Notes under the pieces: generated by a model | Told to the model about the DNA's origin: nothing | Seen by the model: the letters and a program-made list of their open reading frames with translations, nothing else | Databases searched by the model: none | Origin: a virus | Reading direction: 5' to 3' (one strand) | Length of the DNA: 64,000 nucleotides | IMG/VR virus record: IMGVR_UViG_3300045988_099717 | Location: 82,967-146,966 of that record | In this document: positions 2,773-59,027 of the stretch, piece by piece | Position numbering within the stretch: position 1 is the stretch's first letter | Layout: each line of letters starts with the position of its first letter | Position numbers and translations under genes: made by a program

Positions 2773-5700
2773 TAATAACATAGATAGATATAATCCTGCT
2801 GCTAAAACCACTTACGAAGATGTGGCAAGGCAAAGGAAATTAGCTGAAGAAGAAAATTACACTCCGGCTACATTACCAGAGACGACAACGCCTCTGGTTC
2901 CTAATTATATGCCTGGTGAAGGTGTGTATGCCCAACCTAAATTTCCAGATTATGCATCAAGGATAGCTGCTGCCGAATACGAAGAGCCGTATATAGCCAA
3001 GGAGATAAGCAACAGTTACTCGGAGGCACTGGCCCGTAACAGCTACAGGGGGGCTACACCTGCCCCGCCGCCTCTTAATCCCTATGGACCGAAGGTAAGT
3101 ATCCGTGAAAGTCATCAGATGGGTAATGATGGGGTATGGCGTACAAAATATCCCAACTATATTCCGGGTATAAACAATGAAGATTATTATGCCAGGAGAC
3201 AGAGCGGATGGAGTAAGTTTTGGAATGGTGTAGGCAAATTCGCTTTAAAATCCGCATTGTACGGTGCACAAGGAGTTGTGTCATTGCCTGACAAACTTAT
3301 CAATATGGCATCTGAGGGAAGTTACAAAGCTGCGTTAAACACTAACATGGATAAGTTTGTAGGTGATCTTGACCAGCAAATAGACATGCTTCTTCCCCAT
3401 TATTACAAGAAAGAGGTAGAAGATTATAATTTCGGTCAGAAGCTTTTTAAGGATACCGGTAATTTCTTATGGAATGATGTCCTTGGTAACGGAATGTCTT
3501 TTACCGTAGGAGCCATGATATCAGCGTACATGACCGGAGGACTTGGAGTTGGATCATTGGGCAATATAGGTGCTAAATTAGGTGGAAGAATCGGAGCTAA
3601 GTTAGCAGCAAGGCAAGCTGCAAATAGGGGTATAGGAAGCCTTAAAAGCGTGTTTAATGACTATGTAAGAAAAGGAGTTGCTACCGGAAGAAATGTAGGG
3701 GAGGCGGCTAAAACCATGACGTTGTTGGCTACCAGTGCCGGATTCGAGTCATCGGTTGAAGCAAATTCTTTTATGAAGCAATCTGAGTCTGATTTCAAGG
3801 ATTATTATCGTAAGATTTATGGTCGTGATCCCAATGCAGAGGAAATGGCTGTTTTTCGTAATTTTAATGCTGATGTAGGTAGTGCTATATTTGCCGCCAA
3901 TATGGGTATAGTAGGATTATCTAACTGGCTTCTTTTTGGTAAGTATATAGGGTTAGGAGGCAAGGCTATACCAGGGTTGGAAAAGAAGCTCAACAAGCAT
4001 TTATTTGGATTAGGGACGGAAGTTGCGAAGCCGGGAGAGATGGCTATTAAAATAACCAATCCCAATATAGGACAAAAGATAGCAGGCAATGTTTTCAATA
4101 TCATGAAAAGGCCGGTGTCCGAAGGCTTATGGGAAGAAGGATCTCAAGGTGCTGTTCAGAATACGGCTGAGGAATATGTTAAGTCAAGATATGATAATGT
4201 AGCCATGAACGGAGCCGTTGATGTTCTTGATGCTATTTCTGAAGGATTTAAAAAGCAATATACGTCTAAAGAAGGATGGACTGAAATAGGAATCGGTGCT
4301 ATTATCGGTTCTTTGTTTGGTATGAGGGAAGGCTTCTTTGGGGTTAAAGAGTATAGCAATAGTCAGATCTTGCTGGAAAGGCAAGTGAATGAATACAACA
4401 AAGCATCTTCTAATCTTAACACGGCGGCTTTGAATACGTTGAAAAAATCAATGAGTTTAGGGCCTCAAGTTCGTTCCGATGCCCAGTCTATGACTGGCAA
4501 GGAGCTTGATGATGCTATGTTTGAAAAGATGTCTATTGACAACCAAATGGGAACCTTAGAGGATTCGGCTGAAAATTTTAGGCAGATGATTGATATGATG
4601 CCTATTTCGGAAATAGCCGAAGCTAATGGAATGTCTTTGGAAGAGGCAAAGAAATACAAGGATTCTATTATTGATAATTATAACAATCGTCTTTCGGATT
4701 TCAGATCTGCCCAGAGTTTTGCCGAAGATCTTATAGGTGATGATTCTAAGATTGAGTTTAGGAAATACGTGGCTCGTAATGCCTTCCTTGGTCTTCAATC
4801 AGAATCAAGAATGAAAGACATAGCTTCTGTCATAGAAACGCTTTCGGGGCAGCCTCGCGTGGCGGATGCTCTAAGTACGTTCTCCCGGCTGTCGGACAGG
4901 GCAAGGGAACGGGCGATGGCTATCCGTGGCATACGGTCAAGAATAGAAGAACTTGAATCCGAAATAGAAGATCTTGCTACCCGCCCTCGCAACGTAGAAG
5001 GGAAAGATCCACAAGCTGAATCCATACAACGAAAAACCAAAGAATTGGAAAGCCTTAGAACCAATTACAATAATTCGTTGTCTGAGTTATCAACGTTAAT
5101 AGGAAAAGAGTTTTCGATAGAAGAGCTGGTAAGTAAAACCGAATCTGTTTTATCATCTCCTCTTTCTCCCATAAGTTCACAAGATGTGATAGAAGCCTAT
5201 GATACGCTTGTGGCTTTTGATGATTATTTTAATGTAAAATCAAGACAGGAAAAGAAGTTTACAGCCAAAGACAAAGCCATGAGATCCTTGGTAAATGAAT
5301 ACCGAAGAAGTTTGATGGACTATAGGAATATGAATAACTTCTTGTCTAAGATGCTTGATAAAAGATTCTTAGCTGAGGAAAACAGGGGGTTTTCAAAAGC
5401 GCTGTCTTCTCTATGGTCTACTCCTTATAAAGGGGATGACAAGGTTCCTGATTTTGCAGAGTCTAATAAAGTTGGTGAATATGACACTGATGAGGTAGTA
5501 GATCAAGCTGTGTCAGAAGGTAAGATTTCGGAAGACGAAGCTTGGACTATCAAGGCTTTTATGCATGCTCTTGATAAAGTAAGGGAAGATAGGATGAAGG
5601 AAGCAGAAGATGATATAAAAGAGTCACCGCTTACGGAGTCTGTATCGGATGAAGATTATGAGGCTGCTATGGATAATCCTATTATGGTTCCGGCCGTAAG

Positions 5701-17658: not shown

Positions 17659-17678
17659 ATTAAAATATTGTAAATATC

Positions 17679-18314
17679 GTGGTTAGAATCGCATATTTCG
17701 GAACCGATGGCTGCCCTGGTCATTACGCTATTCCGATACGAGGTAAATTCACAGAAGAGGATATTAAGGTAATAGAATCTGTAGATTGTGATGATTTCTA
17801 TAAGGTATTTGACGTCATGCGTTTTAAGATAGCTGAGTTTAAAGGATGGACGATATTGGGGATCCCGGCAAGCTTAGACGATCATAGACCTGGAAGCAAA
17901 ACCGTTATCTTCATAGAGGGTGAAGCTAACGAAGCTGATTTTATAGAAGTCACACAAGAGTATTCTTTTCTTAAAAATAAGGTAAAGAAACTTGCCGAAT
18001 TGTATCATGATGGAGAATGGCTTGCGACTGGTAAATTGAATCAAGATCCGCCTACTAACAAGGAGCGGTTTCAATTTACGTTAGACAAGGATGATATTAT
18101 TAACATGATTAGGGGAGTCGATTTAGATCCTTATTCTGATGTGGCGAATGAAATGGAGAAAATCGGATTGGGATCATCATCTGATTCTTCATATGAGGGT
18201 CCCACATGGTCTTGGTTTGTTAACAAAGTAGAACTTTGGCAGAAGAATAATGTATGGGATAGTTTCTCCGCTGAGTTTTTGTGGGGTTTGTATTGTAGGA
18301 TAAAGAAAGTATAG
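17679..18314 (+). CDS. Hypothetical protein
   Basis: 211-aa ORF. No motif recognised. Confidence 0.5.
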   Translation: MVRIAYFGTDGCPGHYAIPIRGKFTEEDIKVIESVDCDDFYKVFDVMRFKIAEFKGWTILGIPASLDDHRPGSKTVIFIEGEANEADFIEVTQEYSFLKNKVKKLAELYHDGEWLATGKLNQDPPTNKERFQFTLDKDDIINMIRGVDLDPYSDVANEMEKIGLGSSSDSSYEGPTWSWFVNKVELWQKNNVWDSFSAEFLWGLYCRIKKV

Positions 18315-18337
18315 TAACAATTAATTTAAAACAAATC

Positions 18338-19201
18338 ATGGAATTAAAAGATTTTAAAGATGTGGTTAGAGTAATGACAAAAGAAGAGTTCGAATCAACA
18401 ATCGAAGAAGATATTAAATTCGTTGAGGGATTCAAGAATTTCTTAAAACATGATGATGCCACGAGGATAGTAGAGCATATCAAGTCTGTGTTAGAAGCAT
18501 CAGTAGATTACTACTATCCTAATCATCCTGAAGTAGAATTTGAAAAAGATTTTAATATACAATACGATGTCAATAATATCTTGAACAAATACGGCCACAC
18601 CGAAATGGGTATGTATAAAATACAGCTCTATATAGAGAATATTTTGGGTAGTATTCAAAACAAGAAGCCTGTAGACGTGGGAGAAGTCTCTGACGGATAC
18701 CACACTTTCAATGAATTGTATCGGTATCGCATGTTGTATAACGCTGCCTTCTTTAATCTATTAGCCAGAAGCGGACAGGTTGAAGTTTGCAAATCAAGGA
18801 GACACAGCGACGGAGAAAAATGCTTCGGTTCTGATGATTGGTTTATTGTGATGGCGATCCTACCTACCGGTCAGGTATCTAATCACTATGAAAGCAAATA
18901 CTGGGATTTGTTTGATGTTCCTGAAAGAGAAACCGCTTTCGAATACGATGGCCATACACCAAATGAAGCCTCCGACAGACTTGAAAAGTATCTCAAACTG
19001 CCTCGTCATGGCATGACATTCGAACAGGCTTTAGAACGGCTTAAATTAGGTCGTAAGATAAAAAGAATCGATTGGGGTAAAAAGTATATCTGTATGTTTG
19101 ACGTAAATATATTGATGATAGATACAGGTCAAAAAGTAGCATCAAATTGGAATCCAACCGAACATGATATTATGTCTAATGACTGGGAGATTGCGGGATG
19201 A
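18338..19201 (+). CDS. Protein with a C-terminal DUF2829-like (Tad2-like) domain
   Basis: The C-terminal ~60 aa, FEQALERLKLGRKIKRIDWGKKYICM...NWNPTEHDIMSNDWEIAG, match the DUF2829 signature as I remember it: an N-terminal F..AL..LK.G+.+.R..W and a C-terminal W.P...D....DWEI. The N-terminal ~220 aa are unknown. Confidence 0.55.
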   Translation: MELKDFKDVVRVMTKEEFESTIEEDIKFVEGFKNFLKHDDATRIVEHIKSVLEASVDYYYPNHPEVEFEKDFNIQYDVNNILNKYGHTEMGMYKIQLYIENILGSIQNKKPVDVGEVSDGYHTFNELYRYRMLYNAAFFNLLARSGQVEVCKSRRHSDGEKCFGSDDWFIVMAILPTGQVSNHYESKYWDLFDVPERETAFEYDGHTPNEASDRLEKYLKLPRHGMTFEQALERLKLGRKIKRIDWGKKYICMFDVNILMIDTGQKVASNWNPTEHDIMSNDWEIAG

Positions 19202-19782: not shown

Positions 19783-19799
19783 CTAAAAACAAAATAATA

Positions 19800-21125
19800 T
19801 GGGATTTATGATTATTTAACCAACAAAACCACCATACTTTAGTAGGTGGATGAATTGGTTTGATTAATTTTGAATCAAAATTACAGATAAAAAAATGATT
19901 TCATACAAATACAACATCTATCATTCGAAGAAAACGAAGTATCTTGACAAGATGCTTCGTGAATGTTGTTTTGTATGGAATCATGCGTTAGCTCTACAAC
20001 GTAGGTATCACAAACTGTTTGGGAAATATATATCAATTGGTAAAATGAAGAAACATTTTACCAAAAGAATTAAAAGAAATCTTCTTCATTCCCAAACAAC
20101 ACAAGAAATACTTGAACGTCTTGATGAATCTTATAATCGTTTCTTTAAGAAGTTAGCTAAACGACCTCCTAAGTTTAAATCACCGGAGAAATTCAATTCT
20201 TTTGTATTCAAACAAGGTGGTTTTACCCTGAATGGTAATTGTTTAACAATTAACAAAGGAAAGAAACGATTTAGATTCTCATACAGTAGAGTCTACGAAG
20301 GTAATGTTAAACAAATTAGAATAGTTAGAGAAACGTGTTCCCGTTTTAGTTTGATTATAGTTACAGACTATAATCCTATAAACTCCTATAGAAAGACACA
20401 TGATGGTGCATCTATAGGATTGGATTTTGGCCTGAAAACTTATCTAACTAAAAGCGATGGTAGCAAAATCGATTCTCCATTATTCTTAAAACAATATCAA
20501 AACAAGATTAGAAAACTAAACAAACGGCTTTCTAATGCAAAGAAAGGATCCAACAATAGAAGAAGGAGATTGTTTGAACTCCAACAAACGTATCGTAAAA
20601 TAAACGATCTTCGATCGGATTTTCAATGGGGATTAGCACACCAGTTATGCAAACAGTATGATTATATTTTTATTGAAGATCTAAACATTGAAGGAATGAA
20701 ACGTTTGTGGGGAAAGAAAGTTTCTGATCTCAGTCATTCTTCTTTTATTGATAAGCTAATGTATGTTTCTTCAAAGTATGGAGTAACGATACACAAGATT
20801 GACAAATGGTATCCTTCTTCCAAAACTTGTGAATGTGGCTGCATTAATAAAGGACTGTCGTTACGCGACCGCACGTGGGTGTGCCCAGCGTGCGGAGCGA
20901 TTAACGACCGTGATGTTCTTGCAGCTAAAAATATTCTTCGGAAGGGCATTTCCGAATTGGAGAGCAAGAGTAATTCCAGCGATAGTAATATCGGGGTTTC
21001 TTGCGTTTGTATCCAAGAATCCCATTCGCTTTAGCGATGGGAGTATGTCAAACTGGTAATTGCATAATTTAATTGAACGTAAATCCAAAGGACCCCAGTG
21101 AATCCTTTTTTGACGTATATGATAG
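19800..21125 (+). mobile_element. Candidate IS200/IS605-family element carrying only tnpB (IS1341-like); boundaries approximate
   Basis: An intact TnpB ORF. A hairpin ccacc-N11-ggtgg lies upstream at about 19834-19854. A hairpin aaagga-N10-tccttt followed by TTTT lies downstream at about 21093-21118. The 3' flank could encode a guide (omega) RNA. Confidence 0.5.
19895..21034 (+). CDS. tnpB: TnpB (IS200/IS605 OrfB-type RuvC-like nuclease, RNA-guided family)
   Basis: The N-terminus YKYNIYHSKKTKYLDKMLRECCFVWNHALA is typical of TnpB. A RuvC-I-like D is present (GLDFGLK), an E in FIEDLN, a zinc finger CECGC...CPACG, and a C-terminal DRDVLAAKNI (RuvC-III). Confidence 0.85.
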   Translation: MISYKYNIYHSKKTKYLDKMLRECCFVWNHALALQRRYHKLFGKYISIGKMKKHFTKRIKRNLLHSQTTQEILERLDESYNRFFKKLAKRPPKFKSPEKFNSFVFKQGGFTLNGNCLTINKGKKRFRFSYSRVYEGNVKQIRIVRETCSRFSLIIVTDYNPINSYRKTHDGASIGLDFGLKTYLTKSDGSKIDSPLFLKQYQNKIRKLNKRLSNAKKGSNNRRRRLFELQQTYRKINDLRSDFQWGLAHQLCKQYDYIFIEDLNIEGMKRLWGKKVSDLSHSSFIDKLMYVSSKYGVTIHKIDKWYPSSKTCECGCINKGLSLRDRTWVCPACGAINDRDVLAAKNILRKGISELESKSNSSDSNIGVSCVCIQESHSL

Positions 21126-21185
21126 AGATGAGATGAAATTGATATACGGAATAAAGATCAGTATTCTGAAAGAAATGTTTATCAT

Positions 21186-21503
21186 ATGATTACCAAGCAG
21201 GACATACAAGCAGCAGCATCGTATATTTTCCGAAGCAGTTTTGTCTCGGAGGACCAGGCAAGGAAAGCAATGGTAAGAGTCGGCAATAACGCTACCAAGA
21301 TCCTCGTCAAGACCTTTAGAGGCAAGTTGTTCAAGAAAGCTTTTGAAAGAGCCCGTAGAGGAAAGGATATCAGTTCTTTTGAAAGACAGGAAAAAGAAAG
21401 TGGTTTCAATTTTCTACACAATCCTAATAATGGTCGTATGCAAAGCGGTCATATTATAATAGATGGAATTGGTCTGTTTAAACAAATAATTCATGAAAGG
21501 TAA
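21186..21503 (+). CDS. Hypothetical protein
   Basis: 105-aa ORF. Confidence 0.4.
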   Translation: MITKQDIQAAASYIFRSSFVSEDQARKAMVRVGNNATKILVKTFRGKLFKKAFERARRGKDISSFERQEKESGFNFLHNPNNGRMQSGHIIIDGIGLFKQIIHER

Positions 21504-29437: not shown

Positions 29438-30175
29438 ATGAGAAGAAGATTTGAAAATAATGCTAAACTATATGAGTATAAGATAGTTAGCGATTGTATA
29501 GGGGGGGGGGTAATCGTAGAAGGAAAGAAAGTAGGCACCATTCCACAGGGCGGGCAATTTATCTTTCTGTCTAAAAAAGAACGGCTGGATTCCATAAGTG
29601 TCCAAGGCGGTGTTCCAATGGAAGATAGGCAAGAGATCGATAGTCAGGTTGATACGACAGAGGAATTGCTTGAACAGGATTCGGTGGTTCTTGCTATTGC
29701 TTTAACAACCTCTCCTTATTATGGATTTAGAGTAAGTGTGATAGCACCTGATGAGTTTACGCTAAGAACAACCAATAGGATTAATAGAACCTTTTTAATA
29801 ACAAGCTTTACTCCACCTGCTGCTATATACGGTGTAAACTTTGGTGATCCTATTGTCCTTAATTATGATAGTTACCAATATGAGATGCCAGATCTTGTAA
29901 TTGATGGACCTCATGATAGAATAGTTAGGGCAGATCCTAATCTTACTTGGGTTGTAAGATGTACAGACGCCGACTTTAAACCTTTGCCATATCCAGAATC
30001 ATGGTCTGGCCAAGGTTTAAATTCTATGTTCTTATCAGATATGAAACGTCTTGCTCCTGGTGATCATCATGTATCATATACAGCTTATATTAATTTGGAC
30101 TTGATAAATGATGGCGGAAGTAAAGTTCATACTGAATATCTGATATTAGAAAAAACACTTAATTTTACGATATGA
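29438..30175 (+). CDS. Hypothetical protein starting MRRRF and containing a G10 tract (tail fibre or receptor-binding candidate)
   Basis: 245-aa ORF with a G10 homopolymer at 29501-29510 inside the coding sequence. It is the last + strand gene before the strand switch. Confidence 0.55.
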   Translation: MRRRFENNAKLYEYKIVSDCIGGGVIVEGKKVGTIPQGGQFIFLSKKERLDSISVQGGVPMEDRQEIDSQVDTTEELLEQDSVVLAIALTTSPYYGFRVSVIAPDEFTLRTTNRINRTFLITSFTPPAAIYGVNFGDPIVLNYDSYQYEMPDLVIDGPHDRIVRADPNLTWVVRCTDADFKPLPYPESWSGQGLNSMFLSDMKRLAPGDHHVSYTAYINLDLINDGGSKVHTEYLILEKTLNFTI

Positions 30176-30220
30176 CAACAATCCCCAACCGTACGCCTAT
30201 TGTATGGTTGGGGATTGTTG
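30176..30220. terminator. Bidirectional terminator hairpin at the convergent strand switch
   Basis: Perfect 15-bp inverted repeat caacaatccccaacc/ggttggggattgttg with a 15-nt loop, lying between the + strand stop at 30175 and the - strand stop at 30265. Confidence 0.6.
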
Positions 30221-30264
30221 TAGTTACCATCTTTTCTTGTATAAGCAGAACATGAAATAAGTTT

Positions 30265-30753
30265 CTAAGCATTAACTTCATGACCTCCCCTATCTGTGAA
30301 AACTAAACCAATACCTTCTATGATATGTCCTACTACAGGAGCTTTGTCAAATTCCTCCTTCGTAGCCCAAGTAGCATTATCAGGCATAAGATCCTTGAAT
30401 GCGTCCGAAACATCACCTTGACACCAGCAGTTATTTGATGTAACAATGCCTTTCCCTTCGATATTGATATACATTTTTCTTCCACCACATCCAAGGCTGT
30501 TCCATCCGCTCGGTACGTTTTCCACCATAGGCTTAAGCACCCAGCTTACACCGTCTATCCTAACCCATCCAGGATCGTCTTTGTGCTTGTCGTACAAGTT
30601 TTGCCAAAAAGAGCATTCGTAGCACCATCCCCTGTCTTCCATGACAGTTCTTATCTCACTCCTTTCAAATCCATCTGCATCCATCGTGTGCGGAGAATGA
30701 GGCTGGTGAGGGGTGCCACATTTTGGACATATGAGTTTTAAATTCTTTTCCAT
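30265..30753 (-). CDS. Zinc-ribbon protein, paralog of 51217-51654 (family A)
   Basis: Shares CP.CG...C..C.FW..LY.K.K..P.W..IDG.SW, GGR.M and FKDL.PDNA.W with the ORF at 51217. Confidence 0.6.
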   Translation of the reverse strand: MEKNLKLICPKCGTPHQPHSPHTMDADGFERSEIRTVMEDRGWCYECSFWQNLYDKHKDDPGWVRIDGVSWVLKPMVENVPSGWNSLGCGGRKMYINIEGKGIVTSNNCWCQGDVSDAFKDLMPDNATWATKEEFDKAPVVGHIIEGIGLVFTDRGGHEVNA

Positions 30754-30754
30754 A

Positions 30755-30991
30755 TTATTTAACTTTTACGATCTTAATAGAATCTCCGATATTGTATTCC
30801 CCTTGGTATCCAACGAATTTTATAAGCCTATTATTATAAAATATTGAAATTCTTTCGTCTTCACCATAATACATTATACATCCATCTTCTAAAGGAAGTA
30901 GATCATATATAACCCATCCGTTATTAACCTGACTATCATCATGCGAACATGATGATAACACAAGTGCCATCAATAAAATAAAATACCTCAT
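30755..30991 (-). CDS. Small lipoprotein
   Basis: The N-terminus MRYFILLMALVLSSC carries a signal peptide and the lipobox LSSC. Confidence 0.5.
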   Translation of the reverse strand: MRYFILLMALVLSSCSHDDSQVNNGWVIYDLLPLEDGCIMYYGEDERISIFYNNRLIKFVGYQGEYNIGDSIKIVKVK

Positions 30992-30998
30992 ATTATTT

Positions 30999-31190
30999 TC
31001 AACATAAAAATTTATAACCTGTTTTTACAGCTTCCGCTTCTTCTCTCGTATCAAACATTAAGGTAGTGACAGCTCCTATTCCTTCACAAACGTAAGACAC
31101 TTTCACCCACCACCTAAAAACCCCAGAGCCATAATCGTCATAGTACGGCTCAGAAAGAACTTCTTCTACATACCCATCCAAATAATTCAC
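30999..31190 (-). CDS. Small hypothetical protein
   Basis: 63-aa ORF. Confidence 0.35.
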   Translation of the reverse strand: MNYLDGYVEEVLSEPYYDDYGSGVFRWWVKVSYVCEGIGAVTTLMFDTREEAEAVKTGYKFLC

Positions 31191-31933
31191 GATTGCTCCT
31201 CCTTATTTTTAGATTCTGCCTCTTCGAGTATGTTGATCACCTTATCGACAATATCCGAATCAGACATTTTCTCAATAAAAACATCCATTGCCTTAGTTAT
31301 GTCATTGGCTTCTTTTTCTTCAAGAGCTATTTCTCCACCGGTAATAGCATCAGATAATGATGTAGATAAGTGTCTTATCTTATCAATGCTCATAAACGTA
31401 AATGGATTACCACCCCATCCACCACCCATTTCTTTCATGATCTGATATCCACCTGAAATAAGTCTGCCTGATGTCGTGGCCAAGGAGGATACGATTAGGG
31501 ACAGTACCGCCACCTCCGTCCGCTCCTCGGATACACCCCTCGACCACACGGCTGCCCTTATAGCGCCGGCCAGGTCGTCTATGTATGGCATGAGGTAATC
31601 TTCCATCGCTTGTGTTATATCAGCTATAACCTCACTACGCTCTTTATTTATGTAGTAGATAGAAGCATTGTACTTCTTTATCTCTTTGTCCATATCATTT
31701 AAAAGACGCTTGATATTGTGCTTATACATAGGACTGGTTTTAATTACTTCCTTTAGCTTAAGAATGTAATTATAAGCCTGGTCATTTACGAACAACGTCA
31801 TGGTTTCAACCGTTGAATGAAGCGTGTTGAGGCTGTTAAGAATCTTATCGAAATTGTTTATCAAATAAGCTCTTCTGGTTTTTGCTGCGTAGTTAATGTT
31901 ATTAAAATTATTCATTTTATTCATTAGATTCAA
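31187..31933 (-). CDS. Hypothetical protein
   Basis: 248-aa ORF. Confidence 0.5.
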   Translation of the reverse strand: MNLMNKMNNFNNINYAAKTRRAYLINNFDKILNSLNTLHSTVETMTLFVNDQAYNYILKLKEVIKTSPMYKHNIKRLLNDMDKEIKKYNASIYYINKERSEVIADITQAMEDYLMPYIDDLAGAIRAAVWSRGVSEERTEVAVLSLIVSSLATTSGRLISGGYQIMKEMGGGWGGNPFTFMSIDKIRHLSTSLSDAITGGEIALEEKEANDITKAMDVFIEKMSDSDIVDKVINILEEAESKNKEEQS

Positions 31934-31940
31934 CCTTATA

Positions 31941-33138
31941 TCACAAAATATTTATTCTAACCGGATTAAACACAAATCCACTATCGATTATCTTTCCAAT
32001 GAAAGAATCACCGACTACTTTTCTTGCTATTCCTATAGCTCCATTAATATCAGCATTAATTAGCTTTCCAACGGAACTTTGGAATAATCCACGTTTCTTT
32101 CTTTTCCCTAAATAGGATTCTTGTTTCTTTAGAGGTTCAAAAGCAAGATGGTCAATCTTTGATGTGTAAGATTCCTCATGAGTAATTACCTCTATCCCTA
32201 AAAGATTTGCTTTGTAAACAATCTTATCAATCAATTTAGAATTTAGAATGAGGAATAGAAACAAAATGTTGGTTATTCCTTTTACCGATATTTATCTCGT
32301 TTTTCCATTCTTTGTTTAATCCAATGATGATTGTTCCTATATTGTTAGATTTACAAAAGTCTACAATGTATCTACTGATTTTATGCAATTTGTCTTCTAT
32401 CCAACAATTTCTAAACAAAGTAATTTTTCTTATTCTATTTGAAGTTCCCTTATTACCAACAAAAGACATCAACTTAGCTTTCTTCTTATTGTACCACTGA
32501 TTTACTGATTTCATAACCCGTCCGTTTATAATGAAAGAATTAGTTTCTACATTACTAATACATGAACATAAATTATTCAATCCTAAATCAATCGAAAGAA
32601 AATTGTCTTTGTTTAAACCAAGATCAGTTTCCTTTCTTTCATAAACTACCTCTACTACATAACATGTAGCTTGAGGGATTATTCTAACTTGTTTTAGTTC
32701 GTCTTTCTTTACATTTGTTTTGATAGGTTTGATTATATCTTTAACAAAATAAATACAATTATCACCCTTTACCCTACAATTGCAGTTGGTGAAAACAACC
32801 ATGTTTTGTTTCTTACCTTGTTTGTATGATGGAAGGTGAGGTCTATGATTTCCGTATTTAGAAGGATTCTTTTCAAAATCCTTCTTGAGTTTTATCCAGG
32901 ATTTTATGTTTTTAAATACCTGTTTAATCACCTGTTGGGATACATGATTAGGTAAATTCCTGAAATCGAATTGGTTTTCTTTGCAAAGTTTGTCTGATAA
33001 ATCAAATTCCTTTAAATAGTTACCTGAAAAGATTCCTTGACGAATGTTGTAAAGAACATAATTATATAACAAGCCGGATTTGAAGCAAATATCCTCAAAC
33101 CGGTTGTCTTTAACTATAGGCCTTTCAACTAATCTCAT
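31941..33138 (-). pseudogene. tnpB: Second TnpB-like gene, frameshifted (300-aa N-terminal ORF plus 107-aa C-terminal ORF in another frame), without a zinc finger
   Basis: The N-terminal ORF has a TnpB-like start and LSIDLGLNN (RuvC-I). The C-terminal ORF has HEESYTSKID (RuvC-II E) and NADINGAIGIARK (RuvC-III). The two frames overlap at 32236-32264. No CxxC pairs are present. Confidence 0.65.
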
Positions 33139-33191
33139 TTGAATGATTTATATCGTAAATGTAATCGTTATTTGTAAAATAATCAAATTAT

Positions 33192-33713
33192 TCAATCATC
33201 GCATTTAAATTTTAGATTTTCAAGTTCGTGTATTTGCAACTTAAGATGCTTAATTAAATCCGTTCTCTGTTCCTCTACATATTTCAAAGCTTCTTCTTTA
33301 TTTTTAAAAGCTTGATACCCTATCGTATAAGGAGTGAACCGGTTAGGGGTGTCGGCTAATAAAGTACCATCATAATCTTCTATTTTAGCTTTTACTTTTC
33401 TTATCTTACCATCTTGCAAACATGTGTCTGTAATCCACACAAATGTATCATACATTTCTTCATATAATTCATACCATTCCGGCTTAGGAAATCTTAATGT
33501 GAATCTAATTTCGGTATCTTTCTCTAAGACATTAATATCATACGCCTCCGGCCACAGTTCTTTTATGCTGTCTTCATCTTCAGCATACGCCACCAATACA
33601 AATGAATTACTGGATTCTGCACTACACCAATATGGATATTTTATAGGCCATTTGACCGGACGGTAATCGTTATCGCAGTCGTCTTTTCTAATATAAAATC
33701 TTGCTCTGATCAT
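33192..33713 (-). CDS. Hypothetical protein
   Basis: 173-aa ORF. Confidence 0.5.
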   Translation of the reverse strand: MIRARFYIRKDDCDNDYRPVKWPIKYPYWCSAESSNSFVLVAYAEDEDSIKELWPEAYDINVLEKDTEIRFTLRFPKPEWYELYEEMYDTFVWITDTCLQDGKIRKVKAKIEDYDGTLLADTPNRFTPYTIGYQAFKNKEEALKYVEEQRTDLIKHLKLQIHELENLKFKCDD

Positions 33714-33714
33714 G

Positions 33715-34023
33715 TTATTCTACTTTTTTGATTTCACTTAAATCGCCTTCATACACCAAATAAGATCCTCTTCCAGGTCTTCCTTCTTTATTAACTTCCT
33801 GGATTGTAAATATAACTGTTCCAGTATTCATGATTTGAACGCTCTTGAAGAAACCAACAAGAGGTGCTTTCGAACGTTTGTAAAGAACGTTCACTTTATC
33901 CCCCTTCTTGAATCCATAAACAGAATCGAAATATTCCTTTTTAATTCTTTCAATATTACTTCTGTGTTTGTTCATTGCATCAAGCTCTGTGTCTAACAGT
34001 TGAATCATTTGTTCTTTTGTCAT
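33715..34023 (-). CDS. Hypothetical protein
   Basis: 102-aa ORF. Confidence 0.45.
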   Translation of the reverse strand: MTKEQMIQLLDTELDAMNKHRSNIERIKKEYFDSVYGFKKGDKVNVLYKRSKAPLVGFFKSVQIMNTGTVIFTIQEVNKEGRPGRGSYLVYEGDLSEIKKVE

Positions 34024-34577
34024 TTCTTTTCCTCCTTATTTAATGGTATTAACCCTTTCCCGTGCTTATCATACCATAGCATAGCTATACAGTTCCACGC
34101 ACATTGTGCAAGATGAAAACACCCTGTATCTGAATCTATTCTTTCTCCTTTCATGTATTCCATTAGGTGTCTGGCAGCCGCAGCACGATACCGTTCAAAG
34201 CCGTTATCAAGATTCTGCCAATTGTTAGGTCCGTACTTCTTTGCGCCAGCATGATAGACTCTTACAATGTCTTCAATCTCTTCCATAGGAAGTAAATCCC
34301 ATCGTAGTTTGTCGTCTATGATGTCATTTTTCACCGATTTGTTTTCTATGGGGTCTTTGGTAAGAATAATACCCATAATATCCGTTTCTATAACGAACGT
34401 CTCCCCATTGCAACAAACCTCAGCATATTTATCATTTACTTCTATGTCTGATACTGCCTCCGCTATAGCTCCTTTGGCGACTTTAAATTCGGCACTGATT
34501 ATATCATCTTTCAATATGCGAAAAATAGATCCTTTTGGATAAAGGATATTTTTAGTATTATCATCCATCTTTTCCAT
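34020..34577 (-). CDS. Possible phage dNTP pyrophosphohydrolase-like protein (DUF5664/dGTP-diphosphohydrolase N-terminal-like)
   Basis: The stretch W..L..EE.E..V.VY..GAKKYGPNNW...G..RY..A..RH......G...D..TG..HL...AWN...L matches that family as I remember it. Confidence 0.35.
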   Translation of the reverse strand: MEKMDDNTKNILYPKGSIFRILKDDIISAEFKVAKGAIAEAVSDIEVNDKYAEVCCNGETFVIETDIMGIILTKDPIENKSVKNDIIDDKLRWDLLPMEEIEDIVRVYHAGAKKYGPNNWQNLDNGFERYRAAAARHLMEYMKGERIDSDTGCFHLAQCAWNCIAMLWYDKHGKGLIPLNKEEKK

Positions 34578-34629
34578 TGTTTTATCGTTGTTTTACCTCA
34601 TTTCGATAGTAATATAATCCATCTTCGTC

Positions 34630-34917
34630 TTATACCCTATCATTTCTGTTTTTCTCAAAATACTGTCTTACGGCTTCAATCGCCTTATCGTCATCAAAAG
34701 CCTCTACAAACCCCTCATAGAATCTATTTCGCTCCATAGAGAACGTATTGCTTCCATCCGGAATGGTTCTGAACACAACTACCTTCTCTCCATCCACGTT
34801 CGTTCCTATGATGTTGTTATGGAGAATAATAGAATACCGCCCAGAGTTTTTGTTCTGGACGACACTATGTTCGAGATTGTAGAGTCTAAGTAGTTCTCTT
34901 ATTTCTTTTACTCCCAT
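34630..34917 (-). CDS. Hypothetical protein
   Basis: 95-aa ORF. Confidence 0.45.
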   Translation of the reverse strand: MGVKEIRELLRLYNLEHSVVQNKNSGRYSIILHNNIIGTNVDGEKVVVFRTIPDGSNTFSMERNRFYEGFVEAFDDDKAIEAVRQYFEKNRNDRV

Positions 34918-34918
34918 A

Positions 34919-35665
34919 TTATTTTACGTTTTTAGAAGTTACAGCCTCTTCTCCCCATTTCTTTACATATATAGACCTCATCATGTTCATTAAATTAGAG
35001 AAAGAAGAGATGGTTCCCATCTCTATGCAGAATGCAAGATTAGACTGTAGGGTTTCAAGTTCTTTCAACTGCTCCTGTGTAGCCCTATTTCTTATCATGC
35101 TTTCATGCTCATTAAATACAATCCAATTTAAACCTTTAGCCATCTTGGAGTAATCGGCATCCGGAAATCTTGATATAGCTCTTGATAAGACATTGTATTT
35201 ATCACCTGCCTCTATTCGGTTTAAGATAAGCTTATCTGTTAACCACGTAACAACCTCAGCATACAACATAGGGTTTAGTTCCATAGCTACAAGCACCCAT
35301 ATATATGGATTACACATAGTTCTCCTATTCTCTCCTCTACCCATTGTCTTATAAGCTCCCATTTTTTTCATCACTTTTATAAGTGACTCTTTTTCAACAG
35401 ATTGTATAAAACCAGGAAATCCTGATTCTATCTTATATCCTTGTTTTTCAAGGATATAGTAAACACGTTCCGCACTCTCCTTATTAGATAGGATATTTTC
35501 TATTCTCTTTTCATTCCACCCCATCTCAACCCTCTTCTTCGTATAGGCTTCCTGAAGGTCTGTTAAGGACATAAACGAAGTTTTAGTGTCCTGCTTAATT
35601 ATTACGCCAAATAATTCTCGGTCTTTTGATACCATTGTAACATTTGTTTTCATAAAATATAACAC
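34919..35665 (-). CDS. KilA-N domain DNA-binding protein
   Basis: GENRRTMCNPYIWVLVAMELNPMLYAEVVTWL matches the KilA-N core G...W..P.LA..LA..L.P.F...V..W. Confidence 0.6.
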   Translation of the reverse strand: MLYFMKTNVTMVSKDRELFGVIIKQDTKTSFMSLTDLQEAYTKKRVEMGWNEKRIENILSNKESAERVYYILEKQGYKIESGFPGFIQSVEKESLIKVMKKMGAYKTMGRGENRRTMCNPYIWVLVAMELNPMLYAEVVTWLTDKLILNRIEAGDKYNVLSRAISRFPDADYSKMAKGLNWIVFNEHESMIRNRATQEQLKELETLQSNLAFCIEMGTISSFSNLMNMMRSIYVKKWGEEAVTSKNVK

Positions 35666-35674
35666 ATAAAAAAA

Positions 35675-35704
35675 TAATACGATACAAAAATATGTATCGT
35701 ATTA
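35675..35704. promoter_or_regulatory. Perfect 12-bp inverted repeat (operator-like) upstream of the KilA-N gene
   Basis: taatacgataca-aaaata-tgtatcgtatta, 10-40 nt upstream of the start at 35665. Confidence 0.4.
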
Positions 35705-35751
35705 TATCTATACAAATATATTGTGTTAAATTTTATGGTTGTATTTTTATA

Positions 35752-36114
35752 TTATGCGCCTATGGCTGCCTCTAAATTTCCTATAATATCAGTTTCTATC
35801 TCATCGATTTTATCATCAATGGTTGAAACCGCATTCTCTAAATCCCCTACAATACTTTCCATATCATCAACAACCGCCTCCATATTAGCTACAGCCTCAT
35901 CTGATTGATAATATCTTTCTGTATCTTGTAACGACTCCGGCATATTGTCTCTTGCTTCTGTCTCCTCGTCTAAAATCATATCAACATCATCCTTGGCTGA
36001 ATCCAGATTATGCCTGACCTCTGACAGCTTTGATTTGATAAACTCAAGATCTGTTTTATGCTTTTCCAAATTGGAAATAATATCCTCTATTTTCTTACGT
36101 CTTTTGCTGTTCAT
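35752..36114 (-). CDS. Acidic coiled-coil protein
   Basis: 120-aa D/E-rich ORF. Confidence 0.45.
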   Translation of the reverse strand: MNSKRRKKIEDIISNLEKHKTDLEFIKSKLSEVRHNLDSAKDDVDMILDEETEARDNMPESLQDTERYYQSDEAVANMEAVVDDMESIVGDLENAVSTIDDKIDEIETDIIGNLEAAIGA

Positions 36115-37914: not shown

Positions 37915-38238
37915 TTATTTTATATCAGTAATTAAAATATATTTTTTAACAATATATTCAAGACTCTCAGAAGAACGTATATATAGTTTTTCTTCGTACT
38001 CATATAGAGCGTACCCTTCTTTTATGTCTAATATCTTAATCACATGCTTGCCTCTTTCAAATGGATCCTCAAAGTAGCTCTTATGTTCGTATCTTTGACC
38101 TACTTTGATTTTGTCAGTTTTCTTCTTCATCTTATAACGATTTATTGCTCTACCTGTTTTTATGAAAGCTGTCGTGAGTAAGTATAATAAAACTAAATAC
38201 AAAAGGATCGCTACTCCACATATTAGATCTTCTTTCAT
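37915..38238 (-). CDS. Hypothetical protein with an N-terminal transmembrane segment
   Basis: 107-aa ORF containing the hydrophobic helix AILLYLVLLYLL. Confidence 0.45.
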   Translation of the reverse strand: MKEDLICGVAILLYLVLLYLLTTAFIKTGRAINRYKMKKKTDKIKVGQRYEHKSYFEDPFERGKHVIKILDIKEGYALYEYEEKLYIRSSESLEYIVKKYILITDIK

Positions 38239-50322: not shown

Positions 50323-50991
50323 TTACTGCTCTTTTGATTCGTTCGGCATAGGCATGTCAAACTTTTTCCTGATAAACGATTCTGTTTCTTCATTGAATGG
50401 ATAGGCCTCCTTAATAAAATTCATAGCTACTTCCATGTCACCGTCTGCTATATCTTTATACCTTTCAAAGATACCAACCAGGTCATTGTTGTATGAACGT
50501 TCTTGTTTTATATTGTACACGTATTTCAATACCCTGTCTTTAATTTCATTGGCTTTTTTCACAGTATCATTGAAAGAATTTATACTTTCCAATTCTGGAT
50601 CTTTGTTTTCCTTGTTTACCTTATCAAACTCTTCCTTGCTATATCCCGCTTCTCCTGTAATGGCTGGGCAAACACTTCCATTTATGATCCAAAACTGCTC
50701 ATACGATCCTATCAGAAACTTTGATTCCATTTTAAATGCATTATATTTAATAAGCGAATTAGCCACCTCAGTTGCACCTTCTATGGTTCTAAAACCTATG
50801 CCGATATCTTTTAACATAAATACTGGAACTCCCGTTCTTGGATACACGACTTCTTTTTCGTTCTTTATATTCCAATTTTTAGCTTCAATTGGAATACCCT
50901 TACCAACAAGCTCTTTGTCTATATACAGACTTATCTCTTCGTCTGTTAATGCCACAATCTCATCTCTGCTTAAATCAAAAACTGTTTTCAT
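50323..50991 (-). CDS. Hypothetical protein
   Basis: 222-aa ORF. Confidence 0.5.
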   Translation of the reverse strand: MKTVFDLSRDEIVALTDEEISLYIDKELVGKGIPIEAKNWNIKNEKEVVYPRTGVPVFMLKDIGIGFRTIEGATEVANSLIKYNAFKMESKFLIGSYEQFWIINGSVCPAITGEAGYSKEEFDKVNKENKDPELESINSFNDTVKKANEIKDRVLKYVYNIKQERSYNNDLVGIFERYKDIADGDMEVAMNFIKEAYPFNEETESFIRKKFDMPMPNESKEQ

Positions 50992-51191: not shown

Positions 51192-51216
51192 AACCTTTCA
51201 TATTTTCTTCTTAAAC

Positions 51217-51654
51217 TCATTTTACCCATTTGGCATTATCAGGTATTAAATCCTTAAATTCTTCTGGGATTTTCCCTTGATGCCACCAATCATTGGAAAT
51301 GATTTTTCTCCCATCATTTGAAATAGCCTCCATCATTCTTCCTCCCATACCCATGAATCTTCGTGTTTTGTTGTTTGTATTGGGAACAAACGGATTAGCT
51401 ATCCATGATTCTCCATCTATAATCAACCAATTGGGATTATTCTTATTCTTTTCATATAGTCTGATCCAAAACGCACAAGAATAGCAAACTCCATCTCGTT
51501 CCATAATAGACCGTATAGGACATTTACAAGAATGTTCTGGATTCATGCTATGTATATTATTTTGCCCCGACCCATCTTCGCATCCGCATTCGGGACATAT
51601 TTTCTTCTTTTCGCTTTCCATGTTGTTTATCTTGTTTTTAAGGTAATAGATCAT
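51217..51654 (-). CDS. Zinc-ribbon protein, paralog of 30265-30753 (family A)
   Basis: See the entry at 30265. Confidence 0.6.
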   Translation of the reverse strand: MIYYLKNKINNMESEKKKICPECGCEDGSGQNNIHSMNPEHSCKCPIRSIMERDGVCYSCAFWIRLYEKNKNNPNWLIIDGESWIANPFVPNTNNKTRRFMGMGGRMMEAISNDGRKIISNDWWHQGKIPEEFKDLIPDNAKWVK

Positions 51655-51898
51655 CTAAATAAGCCCATGATTCCATTTCATCTAATCTGTATAAGATACA
51701 TCCTGGATGGCTGGATATAAAAGTTTTGTTCTCTTCCAATATACCCATAATTGGATTCTTTGATCCTATTGTTGATTTCTTAGGGAGAAACACAATAAAA
51801 CGGTGGCAATCTGGAATTACTGTTATAGAATGCCACACGCTGTTAATGCGCCACTCTGCACCAGCTTTAAAAAGAGGAATAGCATATTCTTGTTCCAT
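51638..51898 (-). CDS. Hypothetical protein
   Basis: 86-aa ORF. Confidence 0.4.
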   Translation of the reverse strand: MEQEYAIPLFKAGAEWRINSVWHSITVIPDCHRFIVFLPKKSTIGSKNPIMGILEENKTFISSHPGCILYRLDEMESWAYLDDLLP

Positions 51899-51904
51899 GT
51901 CTAT

Positions 51905-52360
51905 TTAGTTTTGAATTAATGTGAAAAGAGCAATTATAGCCGCAACTGATATAATAGATAAAATAACGTTTGCCAATGCATGCTTTAAGAGGCGCCTTTC
52001 GAGATTTGCGATATGCTTTCTTAGTCCTTCGCAATGTTTTTTTGTAGATCTGGATTCTTTGAGTTCTTTGTTGTATTTTACCATATTTTTGTCGCACCAT
52101 TTCATTATATCAGCACTTGCTTTGTTAAGCATATCTCTGATTTTTTCATCATCATAGAATGGTATTTCAACATCAACACAAGTATTTGGCCTGTATAATA
52201 ATCCGTATGTATCAAAGCACACTTTCAATGTGACAACTTCAGGCTTAGCCATTTCTTCGGCTTGTTTCTTTATCTGCTCATCTGTTGCTTCGGCTTTAGC
52301 TTTAAGCTCATTGTAGTCTTCTATATTCAGCAAAGCCATGTTTTCAAATTCTGTATTCAT
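51905..52360 (-). CDS. Coiled-coil protein with a C-terminal transmembrane anchor
   Basis: 151 aa ending in the hydrophobic helix VILSIISVAAIIALFTLI. Confidence 0.45.
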   Translation of the reverse strand: MNTEFENMALLNIEDYNELKAKAEATDEQIKKQAEEMAKPEVVTLKVCFDTYGLLYRPNTCVDVEIPFYDDEKIRDMLNKASADIMKWCDKNMVKYNKELKESRSTKKHCEGLRKHIANLERRLLKHALANVILSIISVAAIIALFTLIQN

Positions 52361-52380
52361 ATCTACTATTTCTTATTTAG

Positions 52381-52527
52381 AGTGAATGTTTGCCAAATGC
52401 TTTATCCCAACGCCTGCTTGCTATCTGTACACATACTACCAACGCATCACGATATTTACGGGATTAGATGGTTCTTATGTGGCGGATGTTGATAATCCTA
52501 ACAACGCATTCGTACTGATTTTTGCAA
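52381..52527. promoter_or_regulatory. Intergenic element flanked by a 13-bp inverted repeat and containing CAACGCAT-like direct repeats
   Basis: agtgaatgtttgc at 52381-52393 against gcaaactgttcact at 52514-52527. Internal repeats caacgcctg, ccaacgcatcac and aacaacgcattc. Confidence 0.35.
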
Positions 52528-52546
52528 ACTGTTCACTCAATTATTT

Positions 52547-52798
52547 TTAATTTTTAATTAATTCAACTCCTATAATATCTTCGTAATCAATATAGTGCAT
52601 CATTGAAACACCGTTGTCATCATTAGCCATTATTTCAACACAAGCAGAACATCTATTGAATGCACCTTCGATTGTTATACCCGTTAATTGCCTAAAGAAT
52701 CCTAAAAATTTCTTTGGCCTGATAATCCTAATACGGACAAGATCATTCCAAGTTATTCCTTTATATTCACAAATAGATTTAAACTTCTCGGCTGTCAT
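52547..52798 (-). CDS. Hypothetical protein
   Basis: 83-aa ORF. Confidence 0.4.
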   Translation of the reverse strand: MTAEKFKSICEYKGITWNDLVRIRIIRPKKFLGFFRQLTGITIEGAFNRCSACVEIMANDDNGVSMMHYIDYEDIIGVELIKN

Positions 52799-52817
52799 AA
52801 TTCGATTATTTTAGCTG

Positions 52818-53102
52818 TTAGTCATTTTTTGGAATCCAGTTATCCGTATCACAGTGAAAGCAATATCCGGTTTTAGGATGCTCCGCACCGTCTTTAGCTC
52901 CGCAGGTTCCGCAATAATATTCCTTATCATATTCTGGGGAAAGACCTTTATTTCGTTCTTTGATAACAGCTTTTCTTTCTTCGAGCATCATCATTTTATC
53001 AGGATTACGACTCAAATAAAACTTTCTGACTTTATGTATTTGCTTATCAAACAGATCATCGGACTCGGCAATTTGTTTTGCTGTATATTTACTCATGCTC
53101 AA
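52818..53102 (-). CDS. Small zinc-ribbon protein
   Basis: 94 aa containing CGTCG...CFHC. Confidence 0.45.
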   Translation of the reverse strand: MSMSKYTAKQIAESDDLFDKQIHKVRKFYLSRNPDKMMMLEERKAVIKERNKGLSPEYDKEYYCGTCGAKDGAEHPKTGYCFHCDTDNWIPKND

Positions 53103-53255
53103 TTATTTTTAAAGTTTATCTATTATTTTGTCACCCATTTCCTGCCATTCATCACTCACGCTTATAACCAATCCTATGACAGTGAATGATAATAACAACG
53201 TAAAAATAAGTCATAACAGAAAGCAGATAAAAACACATACATACCTCATGATTTT

Positions 53256-54002
53256 TTAGTTGTTAGATAAAAGCAAAATCGGTTCATTTGACTCCGCAAT
53301 TGCTTTTATTTGTTCTGGATTGATAAAACTCTTAACTTGTTCGCTTATATTACAAATAGACTTGATCATATCAACGAATAATTTCGAGGTACATTCGTTA
53401 CACTCCACTTCCATTACCTGTTTATATCTATTGTATGATATGCTCGTTACACAATTCAGCCAGTGCGCATAGGTTCCTTTTTCTGTATTTAACCTGCTGT
53501 ATTCTACTTTTGTCTCTCCATTTCCATATTCAATTACTCTTTTTAGAAATGGTTTTGCATAAACACTAAAACCGAAAGGTTGGGCGTTTAAGGCATCTAA
53601 ACGGGAAGTTCCATCCCTCCATTCTCCATTTTCATCGCCTCCTGTCCATTCCTTAGAGGGGTTAGGGACAATATTTCCGTTTTTGTCATATGAAAACAGG
53701 CAATTCGTTTCCAGTTGATACTTAATAACAGGCACTTCTTCTACTATTTTATAACTCAAACATCTCTTCAGAACTTCCCTGATTTGACTTTCCAAATCAG
53801 AAAGTGCTATACTATTGAAATATCCTTCGTTGCCTAATCTGTTTGTAGGTAATTTGATCCCATAAGAATGAATCTTGTCCACATCTTCTTTTGACAAGGT
53901 AGTGGTAAACACTCCTTCTTTGGTGACATTCACTTTAACAGTTACAGACAAACTGTTATTAACGTTCTTTTCCGTTATATTTAGTGTTGTTAATGCTGCC
54001 AT
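53256..54002 (-). CDS. Hypothetical protein
   Basis: 248-aa ORF. Confidence 0.5.
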   Translation of the reverse strand: MAALTTLNITEKNVNNSLSVTVKVNVTKEGVFTTTLSKEDVDKIHSYGIKLPTNRLGNEGYFNSIALSDLESQIREVLKRCLSYKIVEEVPVIKYQLETNCLFSYDKNGNIVPNPSKEWTGGDENGEWRDGTSRLDALNAQPFGFSVYAKPFLKRVIEYGNGETKVEYSRLNTEKGTYAHWLNCVTSISYNRYKQVMEVECNECTSKLFVDMIKSICNISEQVKSFINPEQIKAIAESNEPILLLSNN

Positions 54003-56431: not shown

Positions 56432-56786
56432 TGTTTTTAAATTTTAGGTAGTTATAGATGTATTAATGTTTCGTGTTTTGATTGATTTCCTTTTCCAGTC
56501 TGTCGATCAGTCTTTGATGTTTGGCAGCCACATAGTTACAGTGTATTGCCAAGTTCCTGTCGCGTTCCTTTTCGAGACGCTTTATTTCTTCTAATTTCCA
56601 GTCTTTTTGCATGATCATATATTTTTTATTCCGATGTTAATAACTCAACCTCTGTACAACGAACCCACAGACGGCGGTCTAAACAAACCTCATTGGTACT
56701 TCGGTTTATGTCGACAACTTTTCTTGTTTTCTGTTTGTATTTGACAGATGAACCTATTTTACATTGAGTTTTGAAAACATTGATTT

Positions 56787-58317: not shown

Positions 58318-58395
58318 TCGTAATCGTAATTATCGTATTCATCCGGTTCATAGTCCGGTATGTCGTATCCAAAATCCATCGAGCTGTTTCCTTTC

Positions 58396-58995: not shown

Positions 58996-59027
58996 ACTCT
59001 ATTTCTTTTAATTCGTTCAACCTATTT

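Follow-up and report, generated by a model that had tools for sequence, protein, structure and literature searches.

A transposase-less TnpB element, probably an IS608-type insertion sequence mobilised in trans, in an epsilon crAss-like phage genome

Based on the comparisons presented here, a segment of 1,242 nt (positions 19810-21051) in the window, as we call the whole stretch of 64,000 nt analysed (positions 82,967 to 146,966 of the IMG/VR virus record IMGVR_UViG_3300045988_099717), is very probably a non-autonomous insertion sequence (IS) of the IS200/IS605 family and of the IS608 type, which keeps a gene for the RNA-guided nuclease TnpB, a predicted omega-RNA scaffold and both of the ends recognised by the transposase TnpA, lacks tnpA itself, and would be mobilised in trans and maintained by homing or retention. 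The window element alone is a textbook non-autonomous IS605-family TnpB element, ordinary in kind; its family has spread to dozens of sites in epsilon crAss-like gut phages, and the computational observations made at the level of the family (a burst of copies, covariation of guide and target, and one-sided deletions) lift the finding above routine. The carrier genome is, judging by its alignments, an Epsilonunovirus-like (crAssE-Sib-like) crAss-like phage, since most of the window shares 87-98% DNA identity with phage crAssE-Sib (OR575929.1, which was deposited under the name 'csAssE-Sib'), the majority of aligned blocks being at 94-96%. For crAssE-Sib, an epsilon crAss-like phage that has been assigned to the proposed genus Epsilonunovirus, two TnpB-family 'transposase' genes have been described, such genes being present in some Epsilonunovirus genomes only (PMC11054128). 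TnpB genes in phages of this type are already annotated; that report gives no definition of their ends, transposon-adjacent motif (TAM), RNA or mobility.

The ends of the element were set by comparing its copies. A scan of IMG/VR returned 306 stretches encoding close relatives of the window TnpB, and the best 80 of these 306 (89-96% amino acid identity), which lie mostly on phage contigs of 75-155 kb with up to three copies per contig, were compared. The block common to every copy stops at window position 21051 (...GGGAGTATGTCAA) and gives way to unrelated flanks; all copies end in ...AGTATGTCAA, followed by 29 unrelated right flanks. On the left side, 52 copies, which we refer to as class a and to whose class the window copy belongs, share a block that starts at 19806 (TTATGATTATTTAACC...), with unrelated sequences upstream. 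The family as a whole is found at no fewer than 20 different left junctions and at 29 right junctions, and the window's class at no fewer than 14 left junctions. Vacant alleles are contiguous in crAssE-Sib for four of the insertion sites (131233/131232, 54586/54585, 92604/92603 and 118227/118228), two of which are also vacant in the window (50816/50815 and 38025/38026). Each vacant allele consists of TTAT joined directly to the right flank; therefore, insertion takes place 3' of TTAT without target duplication, and the transposed DNA begins at 19810 and ends at 21051. Terminal inverted repeats are absent and the target is not duplicated, as is the rule in the IS200/IS605 family, and the mapped sites revealed no evident bias towards either orientation of the element with respect to the genes. 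An earlier, sequence-only reading of this locus had counted a selfish IS among its options and had proposed that the ends be defined from related genomes lacking the insertion. The many junctions and sharp ends bear out the former, and the latter is now possible with base-exact precision from about 80 copies and crAssE-Sib; a fixed, vertically inherited position devoid of IS ends or of a conserved 3' RNA does not agree with the number of left and right junctions, with the sharp ends or with the conserved, covarying structure of the 3' RNA. The two vacant target sites in the window (50792-50839 on the minus strand and 38002-38049 on the plus strand, TTAT followed by GTTAAAAGATATCGG and TTAT followed by GTCTAATATCTTAATC) are occupied by members of the family in contigs L006/L012 and L023, and the window genome is a predicted target of the guides of those copies.

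The architecture of both ends closely resembles that of IS608. The left hairpin (IP_L) is made up of 5 bp, one unpaired base and 3 bp, closed by a TTTA loop. The right hairpin (IP_R) is built in the same way (DNA fold of -7.3 kcal/mol, z = -3.4), with an extrahelical T; the stop codon of tnpB (TAG, 21032-34) is situated in its TTTA loop, and the hairpin covaries among copies. TTAT lies 19 nt before the left hairpin, and cleavage at TCAA falls 10 nt past the foot of the right one. For IS608 it has been established that TTAC, which is cleaved at the left end 19 nt 5' of the hairpin, is read by AAAG just 5' of the hairpin foot, and that an altered left guide shifts the target predictably (PMC3201880). 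The target TTAT and the guide AAAA occur together in all 52 class-a copies. A further 20 copies (class b) have a different left end (TTAC followed by GATCTTTAACAAAG-CCCCTGCTTTTAAGCAGGGG), with TTAC as the target in 20 of 20 and a left guide that reads AAAG in 15, AAAT in four and AAAA in one, while the full-length relatives described below combine TTAC, followed by GATTTTATCCAAAG-CCCCTCTTTTTAAAGAGGGG, with the guide AAAG. From the AAAG/TTAC copies to class a, a C-to-T change in the target is thus paired with a G-to-A change in the left guide. Such covariation is the behaviour predicted of a Y1 TnpA and lends strong though indirect support to the view that a TnpA moves this family. The left end also contains an 8-bp palindrome (TAATTTTG/CAAAATTA, 19865-19883), inside which a TAnnTTTG motif, 23 nt before the ATG, is presumably a -7 promoter box of Bacteroidota type.

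Hairpins had been proposed at both flanks; the left-end and right-end hairpins are real, and the 3'-flank hairpin, which a T-run follows, is weak and lies outside the element. This third hairpin (AAAGGA...TCCTTTTTT, 21086-21110; -3.7 kcal/mol, z = -1.2) was not called by a sigma-70/terminator scan, which is of little use for a Bacteroidota phage. It is also present in crAssE-Sib and codes for ..KDPSESFFD.. in the 3' remnant of the gene broken by the element. Being phage coding sequence in the element-free crAssE-Sib, it was rejected as a feature of the IS and belongs to the phage backbone rather than to a guide-RNA scaffold, as had been suggested; it could at most provide a chance stop for read-through.

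The description of an intact TnpB of 379 amino acids retaining all its RuvC residues was confirmed by the open reading frame (ORF), by family models and by structure matches. The protein matches the NCBIfam model NF040570 (guided_TnpB) over residues 4-350 of 379 with 237 bits against a cut-off of 100 (E=3.2e-70), exceeds the cut-offs of the Pfam families OrfB_IS605 (PF01385) and Cas12f1-like TNB domain (PF07282), and finds its best natural structure match in the TnpB of ISDra2 (8bf8/8exa/8h1j; E=4e-27). Its RuvC triad, D177 (GLDFG), E261 (FIEDL) and D340 (NDRD), aligns with D191/E278/D361 of ISDra2. At least four zinc-ribbon cysteines are in place, the second knuckle being C330-P-A-C333 (the first is considered below). 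The full tnpB ORF is found in 74 of 79 phage copies, all 74 with the D/E/D triad, and the median ratio of nonsynonymous to synonymous substitution (dN/dS) relative to the window copy is 0.146; these comparisons show that tnpB is under purifying selection, and the compact protein is apparently active. The type V CRISPR-Cas model V_cas_c2c8 reaches only 57 bits on this TnpB against a cut-off of 350, and a CRISPR array, for which no search was run, is unlikely to adjoin its 3' side, because the 3' flank is unique phage coding sequence common to crAssE-Sib. At the other end of the gene, a terminator scan flagged a 12-bp hairpin in codons 14-22 (window 19934-19960; ACGAAGTATCTTG-ACA-AGATGCTTCGT), which is kept in the 70-75% identical full-length copies with both arms changed (CTAAGCATTT/AAATGCTTAG) and may be a conserved structure of RNA or single-stranded DNA at the 5' end of tnpB.

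The guide-RNA scaffold was predicted from an alignment of 17 diverse copies, which included the crAssE-Sib copy, full-length elements and a Cryptobacteroides outgroup. It overlaps the last 98 nt of tnpB and extends 17 nt beyond them. The consensus has 36 pairs, with 98% of cells paired and 19 pairs showing compensatory change, a level of covariation reached by none of 500 column shuffles; in slid controls, no more than 6 such pairs arise. For instance, UUCGGAA/UUCCGAA is replaced by UGAGGCA/UGCCUCA around an invariant GGGCAU loop, and GCAAGA/UCUUGC by GUACGGG/CCCGUAC or GUAUGG/CCAUAC. Over the same region, the synonymous divergence (dS) of the 74 intact copies from the window copy falls from 0.33 in codons 1-347 to 0.05 in codons 348-379. 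This collapse of dS and the covariation are, at the level of aligned copies, the signature of a functional RNA that overlaps the 3' end of tnpB, as in ISDra2. Weaker pairing continues upstream (20837-20926), so the 5' end of the scaffold possibly lies further upstream than drawn here. Downstream, the scaffold cannot extend into 21052-21125, because the element ends at 21051; of the 3' flank (21000-21125) in which the sequence-only reading had placed it, only 21000-21051 can belong to it, and most of the scaffold lies within the 3' end of tnpB. A search with covariance models, which had been recommended, was answered only in part by existing ones: Rfam gave no TnpB guide-RNA or other RNA family, either for the region at a permissive threshold or for the whole window at the gathering threshold, and weak matches to msr and snoRNA families (E>3) were dismissed as chance. 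Our own model built from the scaffold (R1) matches only tnpB-linked copies, and a search with it found no orphan scaffold copies resembling palindrome-associated transposable elements (PATE) in the window or in crAssE-Sib. Short stretches (45-49 nt) of the Parabacteroides phages PF672P1 and PF672P2 (about 60 kb) are ~96% identical to window 20925-20973, which includes scaffold helix 1 (CTTCGGAAGGGCATTTCCGAA); this suggests that related TnpB/omega-RNA elements occur in unrelated Parabacteroides phages.

The guide itself would be drawn from the phage sequence adjoining the right end. Its first 18 nt (ACTGGTAATTGCATAA) are found in crAssE-Sib with 18 of 18 matches directly behind a TTAT (101954-101957, the match starting at 101958), and the window contains no such combination of TAM and guide target; therefore, the element's own site in its uninterrupted form is the predicted target. 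This corresponds to the homing or retention logic known for TnpB (PMC10055086). The features of the element and of its insertion site are collected in Table 1.

Table 1. Coordinates of the TnpB element and of the flanking remnants in the window
Feature	Position	Strand	Basis or remarks
TTAT target tetranucleotide and left cleavage site, presumed TnpB TAM	19806..19809	+	Outside the transposed DNA; TTAT in 52/52 class-a copies
Left end (LE): 19-nt spacer ending in guide AAAA (19825-19828), then IP_L (19829-19849)	19810..19894	+	Conserved block, fold
tnpB, 379 aa, intact RNA-guided nuclease gene	19895..21034	+	D177, E261, D340; zinc ribbon C312/C314/C316, C330/C333
Predicted omega-RNA (right-end element RNA, reRNA) scaffold, five helices	20937..21051	+	RNAalifold, 17 diverse copies
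Scaffold helices	20937-44/20949-56, 20957-61/21012-16, 20964-70/20998-21004, 20976-84/20989-96, 21020-29/21034-42		
Right end (RE) core: guide GAAT (21017-21020), IP_R (21021-41), spacer AGTATG, cleavage site TCAA (21048-21051)	21017..21051	+	
Predicted guide, phage sequence adjoining RE (ACTGGTAATTGCATAATTTA)	21052..21071	+	First 18 nt found directly behind a TTAT in crAssE-Sib
5' remnant of the 116-aa phage gene (ATGGGATTTAT)	19799..19809	+	Start codon + 3 codons
3' remnant of the 116-aa phage gene, now early stop	21052..21189	+	202 nt between two TTAT sites gone

No Y1 TnpA was found by tblastn with the TnpA of a full-length relative in the 64-kb window (best E=0.59) or up to 3 kb away from the 80 copies, nor was one found in positions 1-150000 of crAssE-Sib (of 151,256 nt). 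The element therefore has the tnpB-only organisation of the IS1341 type, as had been read from the sequence along with the lack of TnpA, and its mobilisation must be in trans. Elements reduced to tnpB and mobilised in trans are common, and cleavage of the donor joint has been described for them (PMC10055086). A candidate transposase is encoded in sister phages: MT839900.1 and 17 IMG/VR phage contigs harbor a 132-aa HUH/Y1 TnpA divergently upstream of tnpB. These contigs measure 10-157 kb (82-157 kb for 14 of them) and their backbone is only 72-82% identical to crAssE-Sib; their tnpB shares 70-75% DNA identity with the window copy and is followed by the same right end. The full-length IS605-type elements occupy loci L087-L102, L109 and L002 (MT839900.1), are inserted at TTAC, and in the case of MT839900.1 have a frameshifted tnpB. 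Among 185,579 representative bacterial genomes, a scan that detects close relatives only yielded a single host relative (56% identity), in a metagenome-assembled genome (MAG) of Ca. Cryptobacteroides. Close relatives thus appear to be restricted to phages, a scan of this kind being no proof of their absence from hosts.

In the mechanism that we propose, the element would have been moved in trans by a Y1 TnpA supplied by full-length copies of sister phages or by the host, which would recognise TTAT by means of the left-end guide AAAA and TCAA by means of GAAT. tnpB would be transcribed from the Bacteroidota-type promoter in the left end, and the 3' part of the transcript, reaching about 16-20 nt into the phage flank, would give rise to the omega-RNA. 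The complex of TnpB and omega-RNA would then cut genomes with the uninterrupted allele, TTAT followed by the guide match, as in crAssE-Sib, and recombinational repair from an element-bearing genome would copy or retain the element. During co-infection, the same action could be directed against related phages free of the element.

The site of the window copy has a particular structure. crAssE-Sib has no element at this locus: window 18663-19809/19812 aligns up to crAssE-Sib 101755, and the alignment resumes at window 21052, which corresponds to crAssE-Sib 101958. The copy thus sits on a deletion of 202 nt, which begins immediately behind one TTAT (crAssE-Sib 101752-55) and takes in a second TTAT (101954-57) as its last four nucleotides, and an identical structure is found in two diverged IMG/VR contigs (L009 and L034). 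This pattern is not confined to the window. Among class-a copies with non-contiguous flanks in the reference, the right flank starts right after TTAT in 12 of 13, the background frequency of TTAT in the reference being 0.0099 per position; in class-b deletions, it starts after TTAC or CTAC. The deletions measure 12 to 2,125 nt. Two or three right junctions are combined with each of seven left junctions, and no right junction with more than one left; therefore, the deletion is directional and affects the right-end side. For four of the seven the clean parent is also seen (L006/12, L021/22, L047 and L062); the left junction of L030 could not be followed to its end in alignment with the reference. 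Such an event could occur in the TnpA synapse if the left-end guide paired with a downstream TTAT instead of its own: cuts there and at TCAA would attach the right end to the sequence that follows this other TTAT, and the segment in between would be set free. The loss of 202 nt in the window is most likely the outcome of such a joining of the right end past a second, downstream TTAT. Recombination between two nearby independent insertions is a less likely source of these deletions, since it calls for a second parent, with an identical right but another left flank, and for a reciprocal duplication, neither of which is ever seen (0 against about 10 events). Assembly chimeras across a repeat of 1.25 kb could explain singletons, but not the junction types common to 2-15 diverged contigs, the window's among them. 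Two further TTAT sites, 190 nt apart, lie in the window at 17921-18158, inside the ORF 17679-18314; in L015, L016 and L025 these 190 nt are gone and the element joins the first TTAT to what follows the second one, in the same TAM-to-TAM pattern.

We did not find such deletions described in the literature searched, which is weak evidence of novelty. If the right end is indeed joined repeatedly behind other downstream TAMs, the transposase-less TnpB family may act as an RNA-guided drive whose target can be reset, each joining supplying a new guide that would cut both element-free genomes and those with the parental insertion; we regard this extension as speculative and rather doubtful, although worth stating.

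Several observations weigh against the identification of the window element as a functional IS608-type element moved in trans and altered by a one-sided deletion. The first zinc knuckle of TnpB, C312-E-C314-G-C316, has CxCxC spacing instead of the canonical CxxC, so that this part of the zinc finger departs from what had been described. The left hairpin of class a is unlike that of the only TnpA-bearing relatives found, so that the TnpA of sister phages may or may not accept class a. Covariation in scaffold helix 5 could serve the binding of TnpA to DNA rather than an RNA. Finally, exact-pattern scans of IMG/VR for a clean parental insertion at one or the other TTAT of this site gave only two chance matches in unrelated contigs for one pattern and none for the other; which came first in the window copy, insertion or deletion, is consequently judged from the family-wide pattern.

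The alternative that survives best, although improbable, is that of a domesticated nuclease, no longer a transposon and kept for the benefit of the phage, for example against competing phages or host DNA. It would account for the 306 matches in IMG/VR as opposed to one 56% relative among the representative bacterial genomes, for the strong purifying selection, for the lack of TnpA in these genomes and for a group of copies (class c: L003, L010, L014, L017, L019 and L029) found at one fixed site without the left hairpin. The window copy, however, has both TnpA-type ends, belongs to a class with many left junctions and clean TTAT insertions, and has broken a gene rather than taken up a conserved slot. 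Its guide is directed at its own insertion site in the vacant state, as is characteristic of a selfish element, and its catalytic residues are intact; therefore, it is not a TldR-like repressor. The domesticated nuclease, one of the options of the sequence-only reading, thus finds no support in the window copy. The class-c copies, which lie beside a helicase gene (crAssE-Sib ~15766; match at about 3001-4140) and have an intact tnpB, triad and scaffold, are candidates for an immobilised and possibly domesticated lineage.

It is still less probable that the IS608-type element is an inert relic, whose ORF is open by chance of a recent insertion and whose nuclease and RNA no longer function. In favour of this are the lack of a nearby TnpA, the non-canonical spacing of the first zinc knuckle and the decay of the neighbouring gene remnant, but 74 of 79 copies have remained intact despite a dS of ~0.33, with a dN/dS of ~0.15 and an invariant triad, and compensatory changes keep five RNA helices while synonymous sites are frozen over the scaffold. 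Spread by TnpB homing or recombination between co-infecting phages alone, with no transposase ever involved, is the least credible alternative: TnpA is absent from element-bearing genomes and the same junctions recur in diverged genomes (e.g. 15 contigs of the L030 type), but homing copies an element into the same site only, and not to at least 20 left junctions, each junction lies exactly 3' of the tetranucleotide paired with the guide (TTAT/AAAA as against TTAC/AAAG), the signature of a Y1 TnpA (PMC3201880), and a nuclease would cut 15-20 nt away from the TAM.

The gene broken by the window element is small and hypothetical, a homologue of crAssE-Sib WOZ57318.1 (116 aa, no PHROG match), of which translation recovers the first four codons and the last ~45 codons. 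Elsewhere in the window, blocks that megablast aligns to crAssE-Sib poorly or not at all (17670-18662, ~29460-35800, 51200-54000 and 56300-60400) are embedded in surroundings of 87-98% identity and represent zones of accessory-gene replacement. Strand and GC skew switch near 30 kb.

At the level of the family, the TTAT of class a and the TTAC of its sister class form a natural pair for the study of matched choice of TnpA target and TnpB TAM. The phage-restricted burst (306 matches, no fewer than 20 sites, genomes with as many as 3 copies, and none of these genomes found to encode a transposase) raises the question of the mobilising agent and of a role in phage-phage competition. The one-sided TAM-to-TAM deletions, if real, would be a so-far unreported way of reshaping genomes and re-aiming guides; should the drive exist, these elements would be eroders of phage accessory genes and weapons in the competition between phages.

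Among known systems, IS608 (ISHp608, Helicobacter pylori) is the closest in its ends: it also lacks inverted repeats and target duplication, inserts 3' of a tetranucleotide, is cleaved 19 nt 5' of the left hairpin and at TCAA 10 nt 3' of the right one, and uses 4-nt guides and hairpins with an extrahelical base (PMC3201880). The window element differs in the lack of tnpA, in its target (TTAT, not TTAC) and guide (AAAA, not AAAG), in a carrier that is a phage and not a bacterial chromosome, and in a TnpB that is only distantly related. The organisation is reminiscent of the IS1341 group, for instance the ~50 tnpA-less ISGst elements of Geobacillus stearothermophilus, in which tnpB and omega-RNA lie between conserved left and right ends, tnpA acts in trans, TnpA and TnpB have a common TAM, and the guide, taken from the flank 3' of the right end, is directed at the vacant site (PMC10055086); in contrast, the window lineage is phage-borne and no cognate TnpA was found in the same genomes. 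The TnpB-reRNA system of ISDra2 (8bf8/8exa/8h1j) belongs to the same protein family, with the same catalytic triad and a scaffold that shares sequence with the 3' end of tnpB and stops at the boundary of the right end; its TAM is TTGAT instead of TTAT and its protein has 408 instead of 379 amino acids. Within the same phage group, WOZ57285.1 of crAssE-Sib is a homologue of 379 aa (76% nucleotide identity) with the same right end and omega-RNA, located at a different site and with a left end of a different class. crAssE-Sib also encodes a second, unrelated TnpB (64190-65413, L084 14190-15413; 407 aa, 18% identity to the first; PMC11054128), which has no counterpart in the window and whose RNA does not match model R1. 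Finally, the outcome predicted for the window element would be the same as with SegF and the other free-standing homing endonucleases known from T-even phages, and with phage intron endonucleases, namely that the element-free allele of a related phage is cut in co-infection and is then converted or excluded; the difference is that an RNA guide, determined by the insertion site, would recognise the target.

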